Assembly (NCBI GenBank): GCA_041688155.1
Contig: JBDNIW010000013.1
Coordinates: forward strand, 1 to 55,035
Length of the DNA stretch: 55,035 nt
Direction: 5' to 3'
Source of the DNA: Minisyncoccota bacterium
GTDB taxonomy: Bacteria; Patescibacteriota; Minisyncoccia; Phycocordibacterales; UBA918
Made by a program: the position numbers and the translations under genes. Position 1 is the stretch's first letter. Each line of letters starts with the position of its first letter. This document shows, piece after piece, positions 1,648 through 50,198 of the stretch. Under the pieces are notes generated by a model. The model did not search any database, had not been told where the DNA came from, and was given only the letters and a program-made list of their open reading frames with translations.

Positions 1648-2985
1648 ATGAAGGATTTTTTTAGTAGTATTTTTGGGGTTATTCTAATCCCAATTTGCTT
1701 TGGGGCCATTGCAATAATCTGGTGGGTCTTGTTCCGCAACACGGATTTTTCTATTGCTACAACTGTTGGATTTGGGTTATTGCTGTTACCGCTATTCTTG
1801 CCGTTTATATTGTACTATCTGACCTACGATCGGTGGATGGAATTTGTTCATGGAATGTTTAGCTACGAGCAAGGTCGTACCACGTTGCGTATCAAACTCC
1901 CTCAAGAGGTCCTCAAATCGCCCGAGGCGATGGAAAGTGTATTTGCTCAAATTTATAACCCCAACGGATCAGACACACTATGGCAGGCGTACATCGATGG
2001 CAAGTGTCCACTAGTGAGTAGTTTTGAGATTGTGTCTATCGGTGGGGACGTCCGGTTTTATGCCAATGTACCTCGCAAGAAAATTAAAAACGCTCTTGAG
2101 GCACAGCTCTACGCGCAGTACCCAGGTATAGAAATCGAAGAGGAGTTACTCGATTACACCACAGAGGTACAATGGAAGGAAGGTGAGATGGACCTAATGT
2201 CATTTCACATTGTTAAAAAGGTCGACGATGTATTACCTATCAAAACTTATATCGACTATGGTCACGACAAAACGCCCAAAGAGGAGTTAAAGTTCGAACC
2301 GATGGCACCACTAATCGAACACATGAGCAAGGCCAAACTACACGAGCGCCTGTACGTGCAGATCCTCTGCACACCCCACGCCAAAAAAGAATTCAAAGGT
2401 GGCTCCCGGGTAACCAAGGGCACCTGGGAACAAGCTGCGACAGACAAAATAAACGACATGCTCAAACGGGACCGACCAAAAAGCGCTGACCCAAATGAGC
2501 CCGATGACCGACCCACACTGACCATGCACGAGCGCGACACCGTGGCTGCAATCGAACGCAACGTCGGCAAATACGCCTACGAGGTTGGGATCCGAGCCAT
2601 GTACATCACGCTTGACGCCACCCAGTTTGACGGCGAGATGATTGGTCCGATGCTCAAATCATTCTCCCAGTACGATATCCTTAACCGTAACGGATTGGCT
2701 GTGCGCTACAAAACCGAGATTGACTACGCGATGTTCAGAGATTACTCTGGTGGTAAGCAAAAGAAAATGAAGATGGATGAGTTGGAGGCCTATAAAATGC
2801 GCACATACTCAATCCCTGACACACCAAAAGACCAAGTGCACCAACCTAAAGTTATGTCAGTGGAAGAGCTGGCCACCATTTACCACATCCCCGGCAGTTC
2901 AGTTCTAACCCCTGGCCTCAGCCGTATCTCATCTACCCGCCGCAACGCACCCAGCAACCTACCTACCGGCGAACTACCTATCTAA
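1648..2985 (+). CDS. hypothetical membrane protein (two N-terminal TM helices)
   Basis: 445-aa ORF with hydrophobic N-terminus; promoter directly upstream; no family recognised. Confidence 0.55.
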   Translation: MKDFFSSIFGVILIPICFGAIAIIWWVLFRNTDFSIATTVGFGLLLLPLFLPFILYYLTYDRWMEFVHGMFSYEQGRTTLRIKLPQEVLKSPEAMESVFAQIYNPNGSDTLWQAYIDGKCPLVSSFEIVSIGGDVRFYANVPRKKIKNALEAQLYAQYPGIEIEEELLDYTTEVQWKEGEMDLMSFHIVKKVDDVLPIKTYIDYGHDKTPKEELKFEPMAPLIEHMSKAKLHERLYVQILCTPHAKKEFKGGSRVTKGTWEQAATDKINDMLKRDRPKSADPNEPDDRPTLTMHERDTVAAIERNVGKYAYEVGIRAMYITLDATQFDGEMIGPMLKSFSQYDILNRNGLAVRYKTEIDYAMFRDYSGGKQKKMKMDELEAYKMRTYSIPDTPKDQVHQPKVMSVEELATIYHIPGSSVLTPGLSRISSTRRNAPSNLPTGELPI

Positions 2986-19793: not shown

Positions 19794-19811
19794 AAATCTA
19801 CCGTTTAGACC
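19780..19811 (+). other. 14-bp perfect hairpin spanning the rpsI stop codon and the 5' consensus of repeat unit A
   Basis: GGTCTAAACGGTAG-aaat-CTACCGTTTAGACC. Confidence 0.7.
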
Positions 19812-19923
19812 GGTCCTAGCGAGAGCTAGGAATCGTCGATGTTTACGAGACGATAGGAGGGAACAAATATTATTACGTTCTGGGTCGTCCAACAAAGCCA
19901 CCAATCTCTGGTGGTTTTTGTTT
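19798..19923 (+). ncRNA. structured repeat unit A (hairpin CCTAGC-GAGA-GCTAGG, hairpin ATCGTC..GACGAT, TAGGAGGGAA, terminator)
   Basis: First of 4 tandem paralogous units; ends with CCACCA-atctc-TGGTGG hairpin (19898-19914) plus T-run. Confidence 0.55.
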
Positions 19924-20039
19924 ACTCCGGTCCCGAAGGGATCGCCGATATGAAGCGAAGCGGAAGCAGGCGAAGGTGGGAACCGAGTATCAAACTATGC
20001 TGAAGAAAAAGAGAGTCACCCTGACTCTCTTTAGCGTTT
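19924..20039 (+). ncRNA. structured repeat unit B (divergent: TCCC-GAA-GGGA, TCGCC..GGCGA, AGGTGGGAA, terminator)
   Basis: Same architecture with different but still complementary stems; AGAGAGTCA-ccc-TGACTCTCT hairpin 20010-20030. Confidence 0.5.
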
Positions 20040-20157
20040 ACTCCAATCCTAGCGAGAGCTAGGAATCGTCGATGTTTACGAGACGATAGGAGGGAAGAAC
20101 GTCACATTGTGACAGGCGTCCATCGAAGCCACCAAACATTGGTGGCTTTCTCCGTTT
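20040..20157 (+). ncRNA. structured repeat unit C
   Basis: Near-identical core to unit A; AAGCCACCA-aacat-TGGTGGCTT hairpin 20126-20148 plus T-rich tail. Confidence 0.55.
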
Positions 20158-20313
20158 AGACCGGTCCTAGCGAGAGCTAGGAATCGCCGATGTTTACAAG
20201 GTGAATGCTGAAAGCAGAGAGGGTGCCCTGGGGTACGAGACGATAGAAGGGAAGAACGTCAGTCTAGTGACAGGCGTCCAGCAGAGCCACCATGTACGGT
20301 GGCTTTTGTTTTG
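20158..20313 (+). ncRNA. structured repeat unit D (with ~40-nt insertion in second hairpin)
   Basis: Same 5' core; insertion 20195-20233; AGCCACC-atgtac-GGTGGCT hairpin 20285-20304 plus TTTTGTTTTG. Confidence 0.55.
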
Positions 20314-20372
20314 TCTCACTGTAAAATTTGTATCCGCCGCTGGACATTTAACAGCTCACAAAACCACACTTC

Positions 20373-20401
20373 TTTACAGCAATCTCGTTTAGCTTTATAA
20401 T
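20373..20401 (+). promoter_or_regulatory. sigma-70-type promoter TTTACA-17 nt-TATAAT, 9 nt before grpE ATG
   Basis: Read directly. Confidence 0.55.
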
Positions 20402-20410
20402 GCATGTCGT

Positions 20411-21047: not shown

Positions 21048-22973
21048 ATGGCAAAAATATTAGGAATCGACCTTGGAACCACCAACTCAGCAATCGCAGT
21101 GATTGAAGCTGGTGAACCAGTCATCATCGAAAACAGTGAGGGTGCGCGAACCACGCCGTCTATCGTTGCAATCAGTAAAGCCAACGAACGACTGGTGGGG
21201 CAGATTGCCAAGCGGCAAGCCGTGACCAACCCCACCAACACAATCTACGGGATCAAGCGGTTCATGGGGCATGACTTCACCGACGAGGTAGTCCAAAAAG
21301 ACATCGACGTTGTCCCGTACACTATCAAGAAAAGTGAATCCGGTGGCGTCATCGTCGAGCTCGACGGTAAGGACTACCGCCCAGAAGAAGTCTCTGCGAT
21401 GATCCTCAGCAAACTAAAAGCCGACGCGGAAGCAAAACTAGGGGAGAAAATTACCGAAGCGGTGATTACCGTACCGGCGTACTTTAATGACTCTCAACGC
21501 AAAGCCACCCAAGACGCTGGTAAGATTGCAGGACTAGACGTCAAGCGAATCATCAACGAACCAACTGCTGCAGCGCTCGCGTACGGATTCAACAAGAAAA
21601 AAGAAGAGAAAATTGCCGTGTACGACTTTGGTGGTGGAACTTTTGATGTCACTATCCTCGAAGTAGGGGACGACGTAGTAGAGGTCCAAGCGACCGACGG
21701 AAACGCCCACATGGGTGGGCGAGATATCGACCAAGCGGTCGTGCGACACCTGATTGCAGAATTCAAGAAGTCAGACGGAGTAGACCTCGGTAAAGACAAA
21801 CTAGCTCTGCAGCGACTAGACGAGGCAGCTGAAAAGGCCAAGCTGGAACTGTCGAGTACTACCGAAAGTAACATTAACATTCCATTTATCTCTCAGGGTG
21901 CTGATGGACCACTCCACTTCGACGTAACTCTGACCCGATCAAAACTAGAAGAACTAGCGCACGAATACATCGACAAATCGATTGAAATCACCAAGCGCGC
22001 GCTCGAAGCGGCTGGTGTCAAAAAAGAAGACATCAACGAAGTGATCCTAGTGGGAGGACAAACCCGGATGCCAGCGATTCAAAAAGCCGTCAAGGATTTG
22101 TTTGGCAAGGAACCAAACCGGACCATCAACCCAGACGAGGTAGTGGCGCTCGGGGCAGCGATTCAGGCCGGGATTTTCCAAGGTGACGTCCAAGACATCA
22201 CCCTGGTTGATGTGATTCCACTATCACTTTCAATTGAGACGATGGGCAGTGTGGCGACCAAACTGATCGAGAAAAACACGCACATCCCCACCAAGAAATC
22301 CCAAACGTTTTCAACCGCGGCCGATAACCAAACCTCAACCGAAATCCACGTCGTGCAAGGCGAACGACCAATGGCGGCTGACAACAAATCCCTGGGAAAG
22401 TTTGTCCTAGACGGCATCCCACCGGCACCCCGTGGCGTCCCACAGGTAGAGGTCACGTTTGACGTCGATAGTAACGGTGTGCTCAACGTCACGGCCAAAG
22501 ACAAATCAACCGGCAAGGAACAATCAATCAAAATCGAAGCTAGTTCTGGTCTGACCGAGGAGGACATCGAGAAAATGAAGTCAGAAGCCGAAGAGCATGC
22601 CGGTGAAGACGCCAAAAAGAAGGAACTGATTGAGGCGCGCAACCTGGCTGAACAGCTCGTGTACACTGCCGAAAAATCAGTCAAAGACCACGCTGACGAC
22701 ATTCCAGCTGAAACCAAAGAGGATATAGAAACTAAAATCAAAGCGGTAAACGAAGCGAAAAGTGGTGAGGACAAAGCAATGATCACCACAGCGATCGAAG
22801 CCCTATCGGAATCACTCCAGAAAATCGGTGAGATCATGCAGAAAGCCGCCGAGGCAGCTCAGGCTGGTGCAGCTGATGGTGCCAAAACTGATGAAAGTAA
22901 GTCCGACGAACCCAAAGTTCATGAAGCAGAAGAGGTGAAGGAAGATAAGGATGAGACTGAAGATAAAAAATAG
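21048..22973 (+). CDS. dnaK: molecular chaperone DnaK (Hsp70)
   Basis: [29 protein letters not shown] signature motifs. Confidence 0.97.
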
Positions 22974-23267
22974 TTGGTGAGGATGAGTAACAGTGTGACA
23001 ATCTTTTCGGCGGCACACTCGACTCCTGACGCCGCTTGATGCACACACTAAATAACCGTTGCGGTGAGGCTGACAATCATTACGGCTGACTGATAAAAGT
23101 ACTACTAGACCATAAAACAGGAAAGCCATCTCAGCGAGTGATTAGGATGTACACTCAGGAAGAATGATTAGAGTGTAATCATGAAAACCTCGCCAGACTA
23201 TTGCAAAACCAACGTTACCGCCACTCATGGAACCAGAACCCAACTGAACTCTTGCAAAACCAACATT
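22972..23267 (+). repeat. composite inverted-repeat intergenic element, copy 1 (dnaK|dnaJ)
   Basis: Left arm from GTTGGTGAGG..CAGTGTGACAATCTTTTCGG; right arm TACACTC..GAGTGTA..CCTCGCCAGACTATT; conserved right flank CCCAAC..AACTCTTGCAA. Confidence 0.7.
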
Positions 23268-24358: not shown

Positions 24359-24597
24359 AACTTGGTGAGAAATAGTGTGACGGTCTTTTCGGTTACTTGC
24401 TCGACTCGCGTTCGCTCCCTGAGCAAACAAACCAAACGCCCGTTGTGGTATAGCCGGTGTACTTTACCGCTGACTAAATGTAAACGCTTGAATCACTTAC
24501 GCGCTGAGAACTACAGCGAATGTTATCGCATGCACGAGGGAGTTCGACACGCGCGTATCGCCGATATGCTCGCCCGACTATTTCATGCCAACACTCC
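24359..24597 (+). repeat. composite inverted-repeat intergenic element, copy 2 (dnaJ|yigZ-like)
   Basis: Left arm AATAGTGTGACGGTCTTTTCGG..TTGCTC[18 nt]GAGCAA..CCGTTGTGG; right arm shortened but ends GCTCGCCCGACTATTTC. Confidence 0.7.
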
Positions 24598-24621
24598 GCC
24601 AGTCTAGTACTATTGCAGACA

Positions 24622-25035
24622 ATGTCCCAACCGCCCCGATTTGATTTTGAAGATAAGAAAATTCCTCAGACTGAGTTTGTTTTACATGAGCAGATTATCT
24701 CTGACCGGGGGAGTCGATACTCGGTGTCGGTGGGGCGGGTGCAGGGACGGGCAGACATCAAGCTGTTTTTGCAACGGTTGAAGCAAAACAAAAAATACGC
24801 TACGGCTACCCACAACAGCTGGGCTGCGCGCATTTCACAAGACGGTCTGATTTATGAAACCAAGTCAGACGACGGTGAGACTGGCGCCGGGATGGTGATC
24901 CTCCGCATCATGCAAAAAGAACAAGTGAACGACTGCGTCATCTGTGTGACTCGCTGGTTTGGCGGCACCAAACTAATGGGCGACCGATTCAAACATGTGC
25001 AGGACGCCACAAAGTACGCAATTAATCAGTTATAA
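24622..25035 (+). CDS. IMPACT/YigZ family (UPF0029) protein
   Basis: DRGSRYS...ATHNSWAAR...SDDGETGAGMVIL...VTRWFGGTKLMGDRF; start set at ATG 24622 downstream of the repeat element. Confidence 0.8.
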   Translation: MSQPPRFDFEDKKIPQTEFVLHEQIISDRGSRYSVSVGRVQGRADIKLFLQRLKQNKKYATATHNSWAARISQDGLIYETKSDDGETGAGMVILRIMQKEQVNDCVICVTRWFGGTKLMGDRFKHVQDATKYAINQL

Positions 25036-26220: not shown

Positions 26221-27216
26221 TTAAAACTCAATCCCAGTATCTACCAGAATATAAGCACCAACCCCTGTCAGAACTAGGGCAATGGAGAATTGCGCCAACT
26301 CCTTTCGAGTATATACGATTCGCTTTTCAATAAGCACACTAAGCACCAACACGTAAAAAGCTTGATAGGTGTTAGTTGTCATAACAAACGCCGCAGTCGA
26401 GATTAGTGCCGCGTAGCCAATAGCGACGTTGGCTACGTTGTATAAGCTTTCGTTAAGCACATTCAAACTCAACAACTTGACCCCTAACTTGCGTGATTCC
26501 CAGAACGCTCTGCGGTACTGGGGGATGAACACAAGAATGAGAAATCCAAGCATAACCATTACCACTCCCTCAAAGAAAATGGAACGTACCAAGCTTTCTT
26601 CAAGCGCTACCTTTTTGAACAACACTGTCTCAGCTGCCCAAAAAATTGACGCCGGCACCATTAAACTTATAGTACCCCAACTTATAATTCGATTACCGTC
26701 ATCATCCTCTCTGAATGAAACATAACCGGTACCCAAAAGAATAAGGATCATGGCAATCAATTGTAGAGATGAGATAGCCTCGCCTAGGACGAACCACCCG
26801 CCTATTCCCGTAAATACTGGAACAAGTTGGTAGAAGATAATTACAACAACCGCCTCTTCGCGTGCCATGGCATATAGATAACACCCCAAAACCAAGACGT
26901 TGAGTACAGCAACAATTACCAAAATGGAAATGTTGATGTCTTCATCACTCAATGGTTGAGCGTTGAGCACATATTGTGCCAAGGCTTCTGGCAGATTTAC
27001 AATCGCTGAAAAGTCGCTCCAAAATTCAAGTCCAGTGATTGGGCTCGAAATTATAAGGACCACAAGAACGATGCTCGTTAAGAGTGTGGAATAAAGGATT
27101 AGAGTCCCAGGTCCATACTTATCTAAGTGTTTTTCGAGAATGTGCTTGTCGATTTGATTTGTACAAGCATATAGAAAGGACGCAAGTTGCGCCCAGATAA
27201 ATGATCCAAGCAGCAT
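26221..27216 (-). CDS. EamA/DMT family transporter
   Basis: About 10 TM helices in two halves; start at ATG 27216 preceded by GGGAGG. Confidence 0.65.
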   Translation of the reverse strand: MLLGSFIWAQLASFLYACTNQIDKHILEKHLDKYGPGTLILYSTLLTSIVLVVLIISSPITGLEFWSDFSAIVNLPEALAQYVLNAQPLSDEDINISILVIVAVLNVLVLGCYLYAMAREEAVVVIIFYQLVPVFTGIGGWFVLGEAISSLQLIAMILILLGTGYVSFREDDDGNRIISWGTISLMVPASIFWAAETVLFKKVALEESLVRSIFFEGVVMVMLGFLILVFIPQYRRAFWESRKLGVKLLSLNVLNESLYNVANVAIGYAALISTAAFVMTTNTYQAFYVLVLSVLIEKRIVYTRKELAQFSIALVLTGVGAYILVDTGIEF

Positions 27217-27302
27217 TTGCCGACCTCCCAAGTTGCGTTACGATCTAAAATGACTATAACACAATTATCTATAAATTCAAGCAGTGTACCGGTATTTACA
27301 TT

Positions 27303-28181
27303 ATGAATTTTTGTGTTACTTTTCACAAGACACAACCACCCCCTGTGATCGGTGGAACTAACCACAAAAATTGCGACTACATGATTGATGACTACACTTA
27401 CAATACAGACAAAATTATATCTGGGCTATTTTGTCCTTCAATTGATGAGGCCGTGGCCGAAATTGAAAACAGACGTAAGAACCCAGATCTTGCTAAAAAA
27501 GTAGCTGACTATCTTCAAAATGACATACCGGAACACTTTTCGCGAAGTAGGCCAATTTTTTATTTTTCAAGACATCTCGCAACGCCAAACTTTGAAACTG
27601 AACAAGTGATAGAAATTACAAAACTTCACAATCTTGCTCTTGTTATCGGGGAAGATATAAAAGGAATATTTGTGGCCAACAATGAACTGAAAATTTCTCT
27701 TGCTAAGCTACCAGTAGTTAGTGGATTTTCCAGAAGGGGTGATGAGATTATCGAGAATGTAACAATTGTCGATTTCTCAACTAACCAAGGGAAACCTATG
27801 GATGAGATCTTGACAAAATCCGGTGAAACCTTATCGAACTTCCACCACAACCTGTTCAAGTCTGTATACCCAGATTTACCGGAAATTATAGACGAATCAC
27901 AGTGGATAGATCGAAACAACAGGAATGATATCCAAGAGCAATATAAAAAAATGCTAGCCCTGCTATGCGTGCACGGAATTATGTTTGAATCGTATGTGCC
28001 AAACGAATCTAAATTTGTTTCAGAGGTTGTAAAGCCAGCATTCGACGCTATTGAGAAAGAAATTGGAGTCCGCCCTCTAATTGTAGAGCATATATCATCA
28101 GATTTAGAACAAACCAGAAACTGGAACTCATATCCAAACAATGTGTATGACTTTGTTCAAGAGAGAACTAATTTTAAATAA
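27303..28181 (+). CDS. hypothetical protein, no recognisable domain
   Basis: 292-aa ORF in AT-rich stretch; alternative start ATG 27381. Confidence 0.5.
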   Translation: MNFCVTFHKTQPPPVIGGTNHKNCDYMIDDYTYNTDKIISGLFCPSIDEAVAEIENRRKNPDLAKKVADYLQNDIPEHFSRSRPIFYFSRHLATPNFETEQVIEITKLHNLALVIGEDIKGIFVANNELKISLAKLPVVSGFSRRGDEIIENVTIVDFSTNQGKPMDEILTKSGETLSNFHHNLFKSVYPDLPEIIDESQWIDRNNRNDIQEQYKKMLALLCVHGIMFESYVPNESKFVSEVVKPAFDAIEKEIGVRPLIVEHISSDLEQTRNWNSYPNNVYDFVQERTNFK

Positions 28182-34920: not shown

Positions 34921-35216
34921 AGTTGGGGATGGTTAATAATATCGTGACGCTCTTTTTGGCGGCACACTCGACTCGCTCACCGCTCCCTGAGTGCACACAC
35001 CAAACAACCGTTGTGGTACTGCTGATGTACTTTACTAGCTGACAAGCTACGTGTAGTTAAACACATTCGACCTATTACATTATCGAGCACAAAAATAACC
35101 ACGGGAGTGTTTAGTTTGTATACTCAGGGAGCGAATGCGAGTCGAGTATGCAACCGAAAAGCGCGCCCGTACTATTTGTAATACCAAATCCCAACGCAAC
35201 TCTTGCAACCTCAACG
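34921..35216 (+). repeat. composite inverted-repeat intergenic element, copy 3 (aspS|aminopeptidase), best preserved
   Basis: About 97-nt arms 34921-35017 and 35099-35195 are imperfect reverse complements; spacer has TACTTTACTAGCTGAC. Confidence 0.75.
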
Positions 35217-37252: not shown

Positions 37253-37530
37253 GGTTGGTGGTAGTGATTACGTTGGTGCTTAGTGCGTAATAATGTGACG
37301 GTCTTTTCGACAGCGCCCTCGATTCGCTTAGGCTCTCTGAGGGCATCTCCCAAACACCCGTTGTTGGTATTGCTCAGGTTCTTTACTGGCTGACTGAACA
37401 TAAAACCGGAAAGTTCCTATTAGACCTCGTGTCCACACGCAACCACCAAGGGAGTTTGGTTTGTTTACTCAGAGAGCGGAGCGAGTCGAGTAAATAACCA
37501 AAAAGCTCGCCCCACTATTGCAGCACCAGC
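37253..37530 (+). repeat. composite inverted-repeat intergenic element, copy 4 (scpA|scpB)
   Basis: Left arm TAATAATGTGACGGTCTTTTCGA..GCCCTC[18 nt]GAGGGC; right arm TTTACTC[17 nt]GAGTAAA..AAAAGCTCGCCCCACTATT. Confidence 0.75.
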
Positions 37531-45163: not shown

Positions 45164-45901
45164 GTAGAATAATATGGTGGGTTTATTATAAAGTACGTTG
45201 CAAGTGAATGTCGCACATTATTTTGTTTACCAACTAACAGGGGAGTGGGGACTCGGAAAGTTGATCAGTAAGCTGTCTACTGGTCAAGAGCCATCTGGTC
45301 ATCATCGTCAGAATTTAGTGGTTTGGTTCTAGTAATAAATGACGAAATTCGACTAGTTGATTTAAATTGATAATTTTTTTAATTATTAATTTTAAAATTA
45401 TTTTCTTTAAAGTACAGGCACCAGCAGCCGACTCAAACAAACCTGTGAGCGTAGCAATGCTTGATTACTACCGGTGCCGCTACACAAGCAAAACCCAAGG
45501 CAACCATCAACATCCTCTACGCGGATACAGAAGCCTTACAATCGATTCTAGAGCCTTGTATAGGCTGGTCACTGATAACCACAGGTGGACCCAGGAGCCC
45601 GCGTAGCAAAAAACAGGCTGTATAGGGTGCGTAGCTAAATGGGGTAAAAACTGAAAGAGGCAAAAGTAGGGGTAATCAACCTATGGAGTACCCACACTCA
45701 TGATAATAGACTCCCAGGCGCTTATACACAGACTAACTGTAGGCAGCCTTGCCAGACTATCAGTACCTTGGTAATTTATATAGTATAACTGAGCATTAGA
45801 GTTATTATACTCAGTTACTGTGGGGAGGGAGGGAGGGCTCGTGTAAGGCTGCTATAGTATCTGTAGAGCCACCCCACTCTCAGCGCACCCTGAATTTATT
45901 T

Positions 45902-46858
45902 ATGACTAAAAAACCCCACCCACCCACCCTACCGTACCTCGATGATTTTTTGCTGCACATCCAGGCGAACAATTATTCGCCAGAGACTTTATACAACTAC
46001 GAACGCGATTTGCTCACATTTGACTTTTTCTTGAAAAATGAGCTGTCCTCTCTCCCCTTCACCAAAATCACCAAAAAAACCATCGAGCAGTTCAAAGCGT
46101 ACCTGAACTCAAACGACCGAAAAACGGCTGGTGGAGAGTTGGCCCAAAAACGACTCGCCAGTGCCTCTATCAACCGTACCCTGACATCACTGCGGCGCTA
46201 CCTAAATTTCCAGGTCGACATGGACTACCCGTGCCCGATAGTCCCCAGCTCAATTAAACTCCTCCGGATGGGTAAGAAACACGGGCAGGTTGCCCAGATG
46301 TCAGAGTTGGTCAAACTGATTGAAGCCCCAATGACCTACGAGCAAGATAAAGTAATCGCCCTGCGTAACCGTGCGATGCTTGAGACGCTGTTCGCTAGCG
46401 GGATGCGTATCTCAGAGCTTATCAACCTCAAAAAAATCCAACTTGACCAGTCTGGCAAAATATTTATCGAGGGCAAGGGTAAAAAGCAACGCTTTATCTA
46501 CCTGACTGACCGCGCCAAAACGCACATCGATAATTATCTTGCTCAGCGAGAAGATGATCAACCCTACCTGTTTATCGCTAAACGTGGCCTCAACGCCGCC
46601 GACAAAACCAAGCCGATCAGTCCCAACTACCTCCAAATGAAGATCAAACAGTACCGCGAGTTACTCGGCATCAACATCCCCACCAGCGCACACTCACTCC
46701 GCCACGGCTTCGCCACGTACCTCGCCGAGCAAGGCGCCAACCCCGCTGCCCTACAGGTACTCCTGGGTCACGAGTCACTCGAGACCACCACCAGATACGT
46801 CCACGCCAGCGACCGCTACGCCGAAGACACCCACAAGCAGTTCCACCCGTTAAAATAG
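45902..46858 (+). CDS. tyrosine site-specific recombinase, XerC/XerD family
   Basis: SAM-like N-domain; RNRAMLETLFASGMRISEL and HSLRHGFATYLAEQGA...LLGHESLETTTRYVH catalytic motifs. Confidence 0.9.
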   Translation: MTKKPHPPTLPYLDDFLLHIQANNYSPETLYNYERDLLTFDFFLKNELSSLPFTKITKKTIEQFKAYLNSNDRKTAGGELAQKRLASASINRTLTSLRRYLNFQVDMDYPCPIVPSSIKLLRMGKKHGQVAQMSELVKLIEAPMTYEQDKVIALRNRAMLETLFASGMRISELINLKKIQLDQSGKIFIEGKGKKQRFIYLTDRAKTHIDNYLAQREDDQPYLFIAKRGLNAADKTKPISPNYLQMKIKQYRELLGINIPTSAHSLRHGFATYLAEQGANPAALQVLLGHESLETTTRYVHASDRYAEDTHKQFHPLK

Positions 46859-48696: not shown

Positions 48697-49041
48697 TTAG
48701 TTTGCCAGCGCAAGTTGGGAATTGCCCCAACATGGGCGGCTGGCGCTCCAAGGTTGTAGTCCTTGTCGCTCGTAGAGATTACGAGCGTAGGCCATGTTGT
48801 GGTAGAAATCTTCAAGATCGAGGTCAAGTGAGTCGGCGTAGCTTTGGTGATAATGGGTGTTGATTTGCATCACTCCGGTATCACGGTTGTCTACTACCCC
48901 ACGCAAGACTGATCCGTCAGCCAATGTATGACGAAAGGTTGACTCACACCGAGCGACCTCGGCCATCACGGGAATATCTTTAAAATACTCTCGCACCAGC
49001 TCTTCGGTTCGCCCAACGGTCATTTCTCGCGTCGCTACCAC
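48697..49041 (-). CDS. lytic transglycosylase/lysozyme-like (SLT-type) protein; 5' end unresolved
   Basis: CESTF...DTGVMQIN...YARNLY; the frame stays open upstream to 49152 and encodes a signal-peptide-like segment with no ATG/GTG/TTG. Confidence 0.6.
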   Translation of the reverse strand: MVATREMTVGRTEELVREYFKDIPVMAEVARCESTFRHTLADGSVLRGVVDNRDTGVMQINTHYHQSYADSLDLDLEDFYHNMAYARNLYERQGLQPWSASRPCWGNSQLALAN

Positions 49042-49149: not shown

Positions 49150-49412
49150 GTCTTATAGATAAATGTCGACACCCACGAGTGAGTATAGGTCGGAGGACTC
49201 AGATGAGCGCCCCTTCCCCGACAACCGAACAACTCTATCATGAATTGCGGATATTTATTACTATAGCAGAGTAGTGACTAAATGTCAATACATGTGTCTC
49301 GTAGTGGATACGTTCCACTAGATTAAGGAAGAAATAATGTTGGGATATGTACTCAGGGAGACACGATTCGAGTGTCATCCGGAAAAGCTCGCCCGACTAT
49401 TACGACCATTAC
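49150..49412 (+). repeat. composite inverted-repeat element, copy 5 (right arm clear, left part degraded)
   Basis: 49337-49412 GTACTC AGGGAGACACGATTC GAGTGT..GGAAAAGCTCGCCCGACTATTACG matches right arms of copies 2-4; left half only loosely similar. Confidence 0.5.
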
Positions 49413-49439: not shown

Positions 49440-50198
49440 CTACTCTTTCTTTGGGTTCATCATCTGCGTCACTCCCTCTACCGCGCGCAGCACTTCTATT
49501 GGTAGCGCAAATATGACCGTGTTGGATTGGTCTGATGACAAGTCATTGAGGGTTTGGAGGGTTCGTAGGTGCAGTGCTCCAGGCGATTCTGACAGCATCC
49601 TGGCTGCCTTAGCGATGTTTTCGGCTGCTGTTACCTCCCCTTCGGCGTTGATGATCACAGCCCGTCGCTCCCGTTCAGCTTCTGCTTGCTTGGCGATGGT
49701 TCGTTCCATGTCTTCTGGGAGGAAAAAGTCTTTCAGCTCAACGTTGTCTACCTTGATTCCCCACTTGTCAGTCTCGGCGTCGATGATAGTGCGGATTTTG
49801 TCTGATAACTCCTCGCGGTTGGAGAGCACTTCGTCCAGCTCGGCTCCACCAACAATGTTGCGCATCGTAGTCTGAGCTAGTTGCGAGACCGCGTAGCGGA
49901 AATCCTCTACCTCGAGAATTGCCCGCGCCGCGTCGGACACTTTGTAATAAATCACCGCGTTGATACTAGCTGACACGTTGTCGCGGGTGATGACTTTTTG
50001 GTCGGGCACATCGACAGCTTTGACTCGCAAGTCGACTTTGGTCATGTTCTGAAAAATGGGCACGATAATACTCCAACCCGGCTTACGCAAACTACTATAT
50101 TGTCCCATCGTAAGTACGACACCGCGTTCGTACTGTTTAACTTCTCGTAGAAACGAAATTGCAACGACTAGAACTACAATTAAAATAATCCAACCCAT
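49440..50198 (-). CDS. SPFH/band-7 (stomatin-like) protein
   Basis: N-terminal TM, VDLRV...TRDNV...YKV..A SPFH core, C-terminal coiled region. Confidence 0.85.
   Translation of the reverse strand: MGWIILIVVLVVAISFLREVKQYERGVVLTMGQYSSLRKPGWSIIVPIFQNMTKVDLRVKAVDVPDQKVITRDNVSASINAVIYYKVSDAARAILEVEDFRYAVSQLAQTTMRNIVGGAELDEVLSNREELSDKIRTIIDAETDKWGIKVDNVELKDFFLPEDMERTIAKQAEAERERRAVIINAEGEVTAAENIAKAARMLSESPGALHLRTLQTLNDLSSDQSNTVIFALPIEVLRAVEGVTQMMNPKKE

Follow-up and report, generated by a model that had tools for sequence, protein, structure and literature searches.

A family of palindromic intergenic repeats, probably once mobile, between core genes of a Minisyncoccota bacterium

Two kinds of described repeat come closest to the elements treated here. 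In a REPIN, two palindromic units in opposite orientation enclose a spacer of lower conservation, and in single-stranded DNA or mRNA the full element can form a hairpin (PMC3116915); the repetitive extragenic palindromic (REP) unit itself is a palindrome of 20-40 bp, usually with a GTAG or CGTC head (PMC3733652). Repeats such as ERIC/YPAL, Correia and QMITE2 are imperfect palindromes of 100-300 bp without coding capacity, and in other systems the long stem-loops predicted for ERIC/Correia-type transcripts alter mRNA decay (RNase III or E) (PMC10969869, PMC2229807, PMC3184786). Here we describe five intergenic repeats, c1 to c5, in a stretch of 55,035 nt (48% G+C) from a Minisyncoccota bacterium (contig JBDNIW010000013.1), hereafter the window. 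Its gene array is compact and mostly co-directional, running through ribosomal proteins, grpE-dnaK-dnaJ, yigZ/Impact, two histidine kinases, trpS, aspS, an M29 aminopeptidase, scpA-scpB and mraY-ftsW-murG. An earlier note had proposed either a REPIN/ERIC-like mobile repeat or a structured RNA family of 3' untranslated regions (UTRs). We favour the former: the five loci are probably old copies of a non-autonomous, formerly mobile and lineage-restricted palindromic repeat of the MITE/ERIC/REPIN kind (MITE, miniature inverted-repeat transposable element), possibly spread by a hairpin-recognising mobiliser.

The element as an inverted doublet of hairpin modules

All five copies were found at or near the positions first given for them, with a common left arm, spacer and right arm, by alignment and by repeat searches for direct and inverted families (Table 1). 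Each of the ten pairwise local alignments outscored every one of 100 neighbour-preserving shuffles (z 4.9-12.8). Where 0.00 occurrences were expected by chance, there are five of the core motif CTCGAYTCGC-N2-7-GCTCYCTGAG and three of AATAGTGTGACGGTCTTTTCGG at ≤3 mismatches. An nhmmer profile of the family returned exactly these five loci in the window. The downstream flank (8.4 kb beyond the window) holds no further copy and the upstream flank extends 4.2 kb to the contig end; the known copies thus number five in ~68 kb of window and reachable flanks. Window proteins were found unchanged on contigs of several independent assemblies (JGI, ENA, Logan), and an independent Logan contig is 100% identical to the window over 21,230 nt that include c3 and c4; the repeats are therefore not assembly artefacts. 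GC skew of the window was uninformative.

The elements begin with GTTGG(T/G)G and end with C(A/C)CCA(A/G)C, and complementarity runs inward from these termini for ~100 nt. Judged by the termini, the boundaries proposed before hold broadly, with c3 ending at 35195 instead of 35216 and with c1 and c4 starting at 22973 and 37254. The first base of the c1 terminus is the G of the dnaK stop codon TAG, and c3 and c4 start 9 nt and 3 nt past the stop codons of aspS and scpA, respectively. The loss of the left arm in c5 was judged by alignment with c3 and with an orthologue in a relative (L062). Behind c1 and c3 the right terminus is repeated, and the resulting set of direct repeats (23181-23213, 23232-23264, 35183-35215) is 70-79% identical. 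A regular-expression scan recovered the spacer motif TTAC-N2-3-GCTGAC, already reported, to the right of the left arm in 5/5 copies; it is asymmetric, lies next to the left module and is the source of the doublet's polarity. The copies, 239-277 bp long, were taken to be noncoding, in agreement with our observation that they hold just short, non-conserved open reading frames (ORFs) that indels break between copies. A protein database search, made with spurious gene calls over other copies in mind, gave no homologue of the 81-aa ORF of c2. The G+C content of the modules (0.42-0.59) brackets that of the window (0.48), and a promoter and terminator scan inside the copies found neither a promoter consensus nor a terminator-like T run.

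Left arms had been reported to differ from right arms (GTGACGGTC versus GGGCGAGC), and this is correct. Left arms carry ACGG/CCGT where right arms carry GCGAG/CTCGC, a change that keeps the stem of each module and spoils the complementarity between left and right. Since compensation occurs within each arm, each arm is a hairpin module of its own. The earlier description as left arm, spacer and reverse-complement right arm captured the architecture, but the element is better described as an inverted doublet: its 240-275 bp comprise two inverted modules of ~88 nt, one readable per strand, that flank a spacer of 50-80 nt.

This inverted arrangement also permits the element to fold over its full length into a single long hairpin. 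In c3 and c4 the predicted hairpins span ~250 nt, with RNA minimum free energies (MFE) of -102.3 kcal/mol (z -7.5; minus strand -115.7, z -9.9; DNA -54.6, z -6.9) and -93.9 kcal/mol (z -4.6), respectively, and an inverted doublet from a relative (L067, see below) reaches z -5.0. The long hairpin is not significant in c1 (z -1.7) and c2 (z -0.6) because their right arms are degraded; with c5, which has no left arm, it is lost in 3/5 window copies. The 65 pairs of c3 were mapped on eight full copies, five from the window and three orthologues from relatives. Pairing between left and right arms amounted to 73.1% versus 72.9% in shuffled alignments, 214/500 shuffles being as high, and no measure of covariation between the arms stood out. 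On these alignments the arms pair through descent from a palindrome and not through maintained pairing.

The individual module behaves differently. Since RNAalifold gave weak consensus structures on whole elements and on 18 modules, a structure of 26 pairs was drawn by hand and then tested by shuffles, on an alignment of 18 arms (right arms reverse-complemented) plus three single arms from relatives. Stem 1 (AAUAGUGUGACGG / CCGUUGUGGUAUU), stem 2 (UUU.GG / CC.AAA) and stem 3 (CACUCG / UGAGUG) close a conserved loop of ~17 nt, ACUCGC-N-GCUCCC (DNA: ACTCGC-N-GCTCCC). Across the 18 modules, a small sample of related sequences, 78.7% of cells are paired versus 70.3% after shuffling (0/500), with slid controls at ~40%; the covariation score is 0.305 versus 0.156 (0/500), and 11 pairs show double changes versus 7.6 (10/500). 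The covariation signal holds for 12 non-redundant modules when shuffles are confined to the left-type and right-type clades (0/2000). R1, a covariance model built for the module, matched each module on one strand only. Run on three loci not used in model building (L066-L068), it found five new modules at 57-95 bits, whose addition to the alignment left the signal unchanged (79.5% versus 70.9% paired).

Table 1 Coordinates of the repeat copies and their parts, and state of the corresponding junctions in relatives (window positions unless preceded by a locus label)
Feature	Coordinates	Strand	Description
c1, dnaK–dnaJ	22973-23213	+	doublet; terminus GTTGGTG at 22973; left-module core mutated, right module degraded; nhmmer 1e-56
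c1 R1 modules	22981-23067; 23126-23210	+; -	68 bits; 64 bits
Tail after c1	23214-23264	+	right-terminus motif repeated (..CCCAAC..AACTCTTGCAAAACCAAC); common with tail after c3 (35183-35215)
c2, dnaJ–yigZ/Impact-like	24359-24597	+	left module is the best model match; right module degraded (core CTCAG deleted)
c2 R1 modules	24363-24451; 24508-24590	+; -	98 bits; 55 bits
c3, aspS–M29 aminopeptidase	34922-35195	+	best-preserved doublet; termini GTTGGGG ... CCCAAC
c3 R1 modules	34930-35019; 35096-35184	+; -	91 bits; 76.5 bits
Example module (c3 left)	34930-35019	+	~88 nt; stem 1 AAUAUCGUGACG / CGUUGUGGUA, rich in G-U pairs
c4, scpA–scpB	37254-37530	+	intact doublet; left terminus GTTGGTG duplicated (37254 and 37272)
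c4 R1 modules	37281-37369; 37440-37527	+; -	83 bits; 85 bits
c5	49150-49412	+	between minus-strand Band7/SPFH (49440-50198) and orf114 (48697-49041); nhmmer 2e-41
c5 R1 module	49324-49409	-	50.5 bits; right module and spacer motif kept, left module destroyed
Spacer motif TTAC-N2-3-GCTGAC	c1 23080-23090; c2 24464-24474; c3 35032-35043; c4 37383-37394; c5 49258-49278		insertion in c5
aspS–M29 junction			doublet in window and L046; empty, 62-78 nt with intrinsic terminator, in L047, L050 and L053
aspS–M29 junction, L067			whole doublet inverted, right-type module first, then intact terminator
scpA–scpB junction			doublet in window and L047; empty, 51-53 nt, in L052, L053 and L067
scpA–scpB junction, L055			120-nt single-module insert exactly between stop codon and TGGGTAC (start of empty spacer)
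dnaK–dnaJ junction			degraded doublet in window; empty, 70 nt, in L050; truncated module and spacer motif in L067
rpsI–grpE junction			no doublet and no empty site seen; one minus-orientation module in L050 and L067; different repeat in window
Other inserts in 'hot' gaps	L050:4084-4242; L052:4332-4796; L053:1171-1452; L055:6524-6709; L056:10067-10273

Orthologous junctions in relatives

Syntenic loci of relatives, labelled L046 and so on, were fetched via TrpS homologues (79-90% TrpS identity). The search for empty sites, suggested in the earlier note, revealed presence and absence of the repeat at the same junctions, with empty spacers of 51-78 nt, single modules and truncated copies (Table 1); at scpA–scpB, for instance, both L052 and L053 have an empty spacer of 53 nt. 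In the inverted doublet of L067 the spacer motif reads GTCAGCAGTAAAG, its reverse complement. Orthologues of c2 (L047:1095-1328), c3 (L046) and c4 (L047:14740-15000) are 79%, 96% and 91% identical to the window copies. The element invariably follows a stop codon and precedes the -10-like box of the gene that comes next (TGCTATATT, TATACTAC), and in L067 it stands upstream of the terminator of aspS itself. The copies thereby occupy the sole dispensable stretch of very short intergenic spacers. Comparison of these sequences indicates that copies were gained, lost, truncated to single modules and once inverted among close relatives.

The filled junctions also allow the age of the copies to be judged. 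Between the window and L047, the identity of the c4 orthologues (91%) compares with 0.86 (scpA) and 0.92 (scpB) at 4-fold-degenerate sites, and that of the c2 orthologues (79%) with 0.75 (dnaJ). In eight orthologous module pairs the rate of change is 0.103 in stem columns and 0.110 in unpaired columns. Among the 37 stem pairs changed between orthologues, none is compensatory, ten keep pairing by a single change and 22 are broken or repaired. Paralogous modules are 60-81% identical and cluster by locus, not by genome, which argues against a recent burst. By this measure the resident copies are old and drift at about the neutral rate, so that the compensatory pattern of the modules has to date from the period in which the family spread. 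A selection test on L046 versus c3 was uninterpretable, as the 96% identical element lies within a recombination block that is 93-98% identical overall. The genes shared with L047 (23291-42439) form a mosaic, neighbouring genes ranging from 0.44 (orf161) to 1.00 (orf168, histidine kinase) in 4-fold-site identity, and aspS of L046 contains a highly diverged central block. The mosaic divergence points to frequent homologous recombination in the population.

These comparisons bear on the proposal of a host-functional structured RNA, namely a cis-acting 3'-UTR element (stabiliser, terminator/attenuator or RNase site) or a small RNA that tunes the dnaK-dnaJ and scpA-scpB operons. The copies begin 0-15 nt past stop codons in co-directional gene arrays, the L067 element should be transcribed as it precedes the aspS terminator, and c3 sits where relatives have an intrinsic terminator; conversely, orthologous junctions of close relatives are wholly devoid of the element, and the copies show no terminator-like T run, promoter consensus or Rfam match. 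The earlier statement that polarity always runs left to right on the plus strand holds for the five window copies. Still, c5 is reversed relative to local transcription because its flanking genes are on the minus strand, the aspS–M29 doublet of L067 is inverted as a whole, and singlets in relatives occur in both orientations relative to transcription, two of four differing from c1-c4 by one count, and those in L050 and L067 (rpsI–grpE) and L055 (scpA–scpB) being antisense. A requirement for one RNA sense is therefore not supported. The predicted RNA hairpins are very stable, although the long hairpin has been lost from the majority of the window copies. The modules covary and, read on the sense strand, G-U pairs predominate at five positions of the stems, as is typical of RNA, whereas the resident stems now change as fast as the loops, acquire no compensatory changes and have an identity near that of 4-fold sites. 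Taken together, the 3'-UTR RNA family of the earlier note finds no support as a host function, and we consider this explanation improbable.

Mobility, candidate mobilisers and known repeat systems

The REPIN/ERIC-like mobile repeat put forward at the outset is, in turn, supported by the junction polymorphism, the single modules and truncated copies, the approximately neutral divergence and the absence of an Rfam match. The likeness to REPINs goes beyond the inverted units, seen as R1 modules on opposite strands in c1-c4, L046, L047 and L067, and the foldable whole with its less conserved spacer: the elements are extragenic, singlets stand beside doublets as decayed remnants, stems show compensatory changes and target-site duplications are missing. 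Conversely, the unit of ~88 nt has three stems and a 17-nt loop where a REP is a palindrome of 20-40 nt, and no GTAG or CGTC head appears in the module alignments, which sets the modules apart from REP units as defined. The doublet measures 240-275 bp against ~70-110 bp for REPINs, no gene for a REP-associated tyrosine transposase (RAYT) was seen beside any copy, very few copies are known, and the host is probably a bacterium of the candidate phyla radiation (CPR) and not a proteobacterium. The closest relative with a name, by TrpS (78% identical), is labelled 'Candidatus Paceibacteria bacterium', which hints at CPR membership but does not place the host.

Repeats of ERIC/YPAL type and bacterial MITEs are similar in size, in their imperfect palindromes without coding capacity, in their position in transcribed intergenic regions or 3' UTRs, and in being present or absent at orthologous sites. 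For the ERIC/YPAL type this likeness is one of description, sequence similarity being absent against the curated RNA families of Rfam. The present family differs in that no target-site duplication, integration host factor (IHF) site or promoter consensus was found, in a G+C content not below the genome average, and in inverted repeats of ~100 nt per arm, each arm being itself a hairpin.

A conventional MITE would be an internally deleted insertion sequence whose double-stranded ends, GTTGG(T/G)G ... C(A/C)CCAAC, were acted upon by a DDE transposase, with the module hairpins as a by-product of nested inverted repeats. Several features agree with the published description (PMC10969869): a length below 500 bp, terminal inverted repeats, no transposase gene inside or other coding capacity, an intergenic position and a stable predicted transcript structure. 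Flanking direct repeats and AT-richness, which belong to the same description, were not observed, the G+C content being equal to that of the genome. No target-site duplication flanks c1, c3, c4 or the L055 insert, the empty and filled genomes being too diverged for a base-exact comparison; as such duplications fade in old copies (PMC10969869) and no exact empty site is available, their absence is compatible with a MITE. The clade does have DDE transposases at work, as L047 carries an active-looking insertion sequence of the IS30 family (L047:3959-5026; transposase L047:4107-5024, NF033563 E 4.9e-54). Its ends are TTCAATTC..CTGAACCGCAAC with GTACC duplicated, a clean insertion relative to window 27200-27330 (within ..GCAGTGTACCGGTATTTACA..). 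This sole insertion sequence seen in the clade was rejected as the parent since its inverted repeats show no relationship to the element, aligning with it at noise level (scores 9-12), and no other parent was found in the window, the reachable flanks or the relatives' loci. Moreover, a DDE mechanism leaves unexplained why compensatory changes within an arm weaken left-right complementarity. We therefore assign a conventional MITE a low probability.

In IS200/IS605 elements, a single strand carries the hairpins of both the left and the right end. The present family resembles them in its subterminal imperfect hairpins read on one strand, in the missing target duplication and in the occurrence of a hairpin-flanked Y1-like gene in L053; it differs in that its modules are inverted, that no conserved cleavage tetranucleotide was identified at the boundaries and that the L053 hairpins are unrelated. 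The latter gene (204 aa; 2049-2663, minus strand) lies between yigZ and orf161 in a region absent from the window (L053:1992-2716). It shows a weak likeness to RAYT/IS200 Y1 transposases (NF047646 E 9.6e-6, 25.5 bits, cut-off 80; PF01797 E 0.006) and lies between near-perfect hairpins whose core is ACAGGGGTCGAACCCCTGT. Weak as the similarity is, the gene suggests that such enzymes occur in the clade. It was rejected as the mobiliser of this family because its hairpins are unrelated and absent from the window.

Integron attC sites are imperfect palindromes of 57-141 bp at the 3' end of mobile gene cassettes, with GTTRRRY at the recombination point and IntI nearby. This reading was rejected: the copies are flanked by core genes whose synteny is conserved (dnaK, dnaJ, aspS, scpA/B), the elements measure 240-275 bp, GTTGGGG and GTTGGTG do not fit GTTRRRY, and the sole tyrosine recombinase is Xer-like in domain layout and distant from the copies. 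Retrons and diversity-generating retroelements were likewise rejected, on anatomy and gene context. The same recombinase gene (45902-46858) features in a further explanation, in which the repeats would act at the DNA level, as architectural sites or as sites bound by a protein (a nucleoid protein, the Xer-type recombinase, or replication or segregation factors, for example), and would have spread by recombination and not by transposition. The loop sequence and spacer motif are conserved and mosaic recombination does occur among relatives (4-fold identity 0.44-1.00 in neighbouring genes), yet nothing connects the recombinase with the repeats, and copies decay neutrally and are missing at orthologous sites. 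The common plus-strand orientation of all five window copies is weak evidence (1 in 16) and is reversed in L067. We regard such sites as highly improbable.

As far as the available data show, the family is restricted to a narrow clade. The whole window gave no Rfam match at gathering score, and none overlapping the copies at E ≤ 10. In GTDB representative genomes the 20-base core motif gave 44 single matches in unrelated phyla, close to our estimate of what chance would give, and the two arms were never matched together; either the species representatives lack the family or it has diverged in them. A strict two-arm pattern retrieved one locus from JGI metagenomes, the aspS–M29 orthologue L046, and a scan of IMG/VR gave one chance-like match, which the covariance model rejected. 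In the public scans, one locus was thus added to the syntenic relatives.

We are fairly confident of the general class, a non-autonomous, once-mobile palindromic repeat. Although not described before, the family belongs with known types of repeat (MITE/REPIN/ERIC-like) and does not represent a new kind of system. With respect to mechanism, the compensatory changes would have arisen while the family was still spreading, so that the copying agent would recognise the hairpin shape of the module on one strand. Selection for hairpin shape, strand-specific modules, inverted doublets alongside singlets and the lack of target duplications resemble REP/REPIN-RAYT or IS200-like transposition (PMC3116915). 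The likeliest mobiliser would accordingly be a trans-acting, hairpin-recognising single-strand DNA transposase of HUH/Y1 type (RAYT or IS200-like), encoded elsewhere in the genome or since lost. This identification is tentative and, on balance, doubtful, a DDE-type parent insertion sequence being the main alternative.

Several points weigh against a once-mobile repeat with a hairpin-recognising mobiliser. No near-identical strain with an exact empty site was found among the relatives compared, so that the ends given here are approximate, any target-site duplication is hypothetical and mobility is presumed; deletions alone could in principle have produced the pattern of presence and absence. 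In agreement with the earlier note, Pfam and NCBIfam scans detected no transposase of any kind in the window, nor was one seen in the ~12 kb of flanks within reach, and L053, which has the Y1/RAYT-like gene with its unrelated hairpins, is without a copy of the repeat. Only five copies are known, in the ~68 kb searched, a count that refers to this stretch and not to the genome. The drawn module structure is energetically weak (mean -2.4 kcal/mol over the pairs drawn, with a whole-module MFE of about -20), and the G-U run of stem 1 would fit an RNA-level structure equally well as single-stranded DNA.

An effect on the host is compatible with a formerly mobile repeat. As the copies lie inside co-directional gene arrays they are probably co-transcribed, and a co-transcribed copy would form a very stable hairpin in the 3' UTR. 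Such a hairpin might act as a barrier to exonucleases, recruit RNase III or E, or lower read-through. The analogy with ERIC and Correia repeats (PMC10969869) makes co-transcription and an influence on mRNA 3' ends plausible. We regard any such influence as a side effect and not as the reason for the element's existence. A stronger version, in which the module is the recognition hairpin of an active REPIN-like partnership with a domesticated Y1/HUH transposase, or else a strand-specific functional RNA hairpin, appears unlikely to us; were the latter true, the inverted doublet would guarantee one sense copy whichever the direction of transcription.

Repeat-bearing gaps, gene calls and meaning for the clade

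Other sequences occupy some of the same gaps. In relatives without the repeat, the dnaJ–yigZ and aspS–M29 gaps hold small ORFs without Pfam match or a common hairpin, AACGGCCGGGG..CCACACCGGCCGTT; with these varied contents, the junctions can be said to accumulate varied insertions (Table 1). The rpsI–grpE gap of the window (617 nt, 19794-20410) contains three tandem modules of a different repeat (19799-19925, 20032-20150 and 20150-20310). Hairpins with CCTAGCGAGAGCTAGG and TCGTCGATGTTTACGAGACGA are common to them, and at the end of each module a GCCACC...GGTGGC hairpin with a T run resembles a terminator. The first two have fold z-scores of -3.0 and -4.5; there is no Rfam match, and relatives carry other sequence at this place. 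These modules could represent tandem genes for small RNAs, or else leader elements that precede grpE-dnaK-dnaJ. Elsewhere, a non-coding gap of 738 nt (45164-45901) precedes the Xer-like recombinase gene, just downstream of which gene orientation changes from plus to minus (~46.9 kb). The region at 45-47 kb could be a terminus or dif region, or the remnant of an integrated element.

The repeats also affect gene prediction. The longest yigZ/Impact ORF starts at 24520, inside the right arm of c2, and encodes 171 aa compared to 136-141 aa in relatives (window 24520-24621); the true start is probably the ATG at 24622. Similarly, the M29 aminopeptidase of L067 is called with 465 aa versus 409 aa, extended upstream into the repeat (L067:12456-12623), and its true start is probably MKQSYRP. 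Annotation of this clade should thus be read with the warning that gene callers extend both ORFs into the repeat.

Genomes of CPR bacteria (Patescibacteria) are small and tightly packed. Given such compactness, and spacers of 51-78 nt at these junctions, an apparently selfish repeat of 240-275 bp between core genes is unusual. The family provides a marker for genome dynamics at strain and species level in the clade, and its copies constitute a small natural experiment on the tolerance of long hairpins in operon mRNAs. We know of no REPIN/RAYT analogue in the CPR phylum. For now, the repeat is of an ordinary sort and only its host is new; should a hairpin-recognising transposase prove to be its cognate partner, REPIN-like biology would extend to much larger units and to a new phylum.

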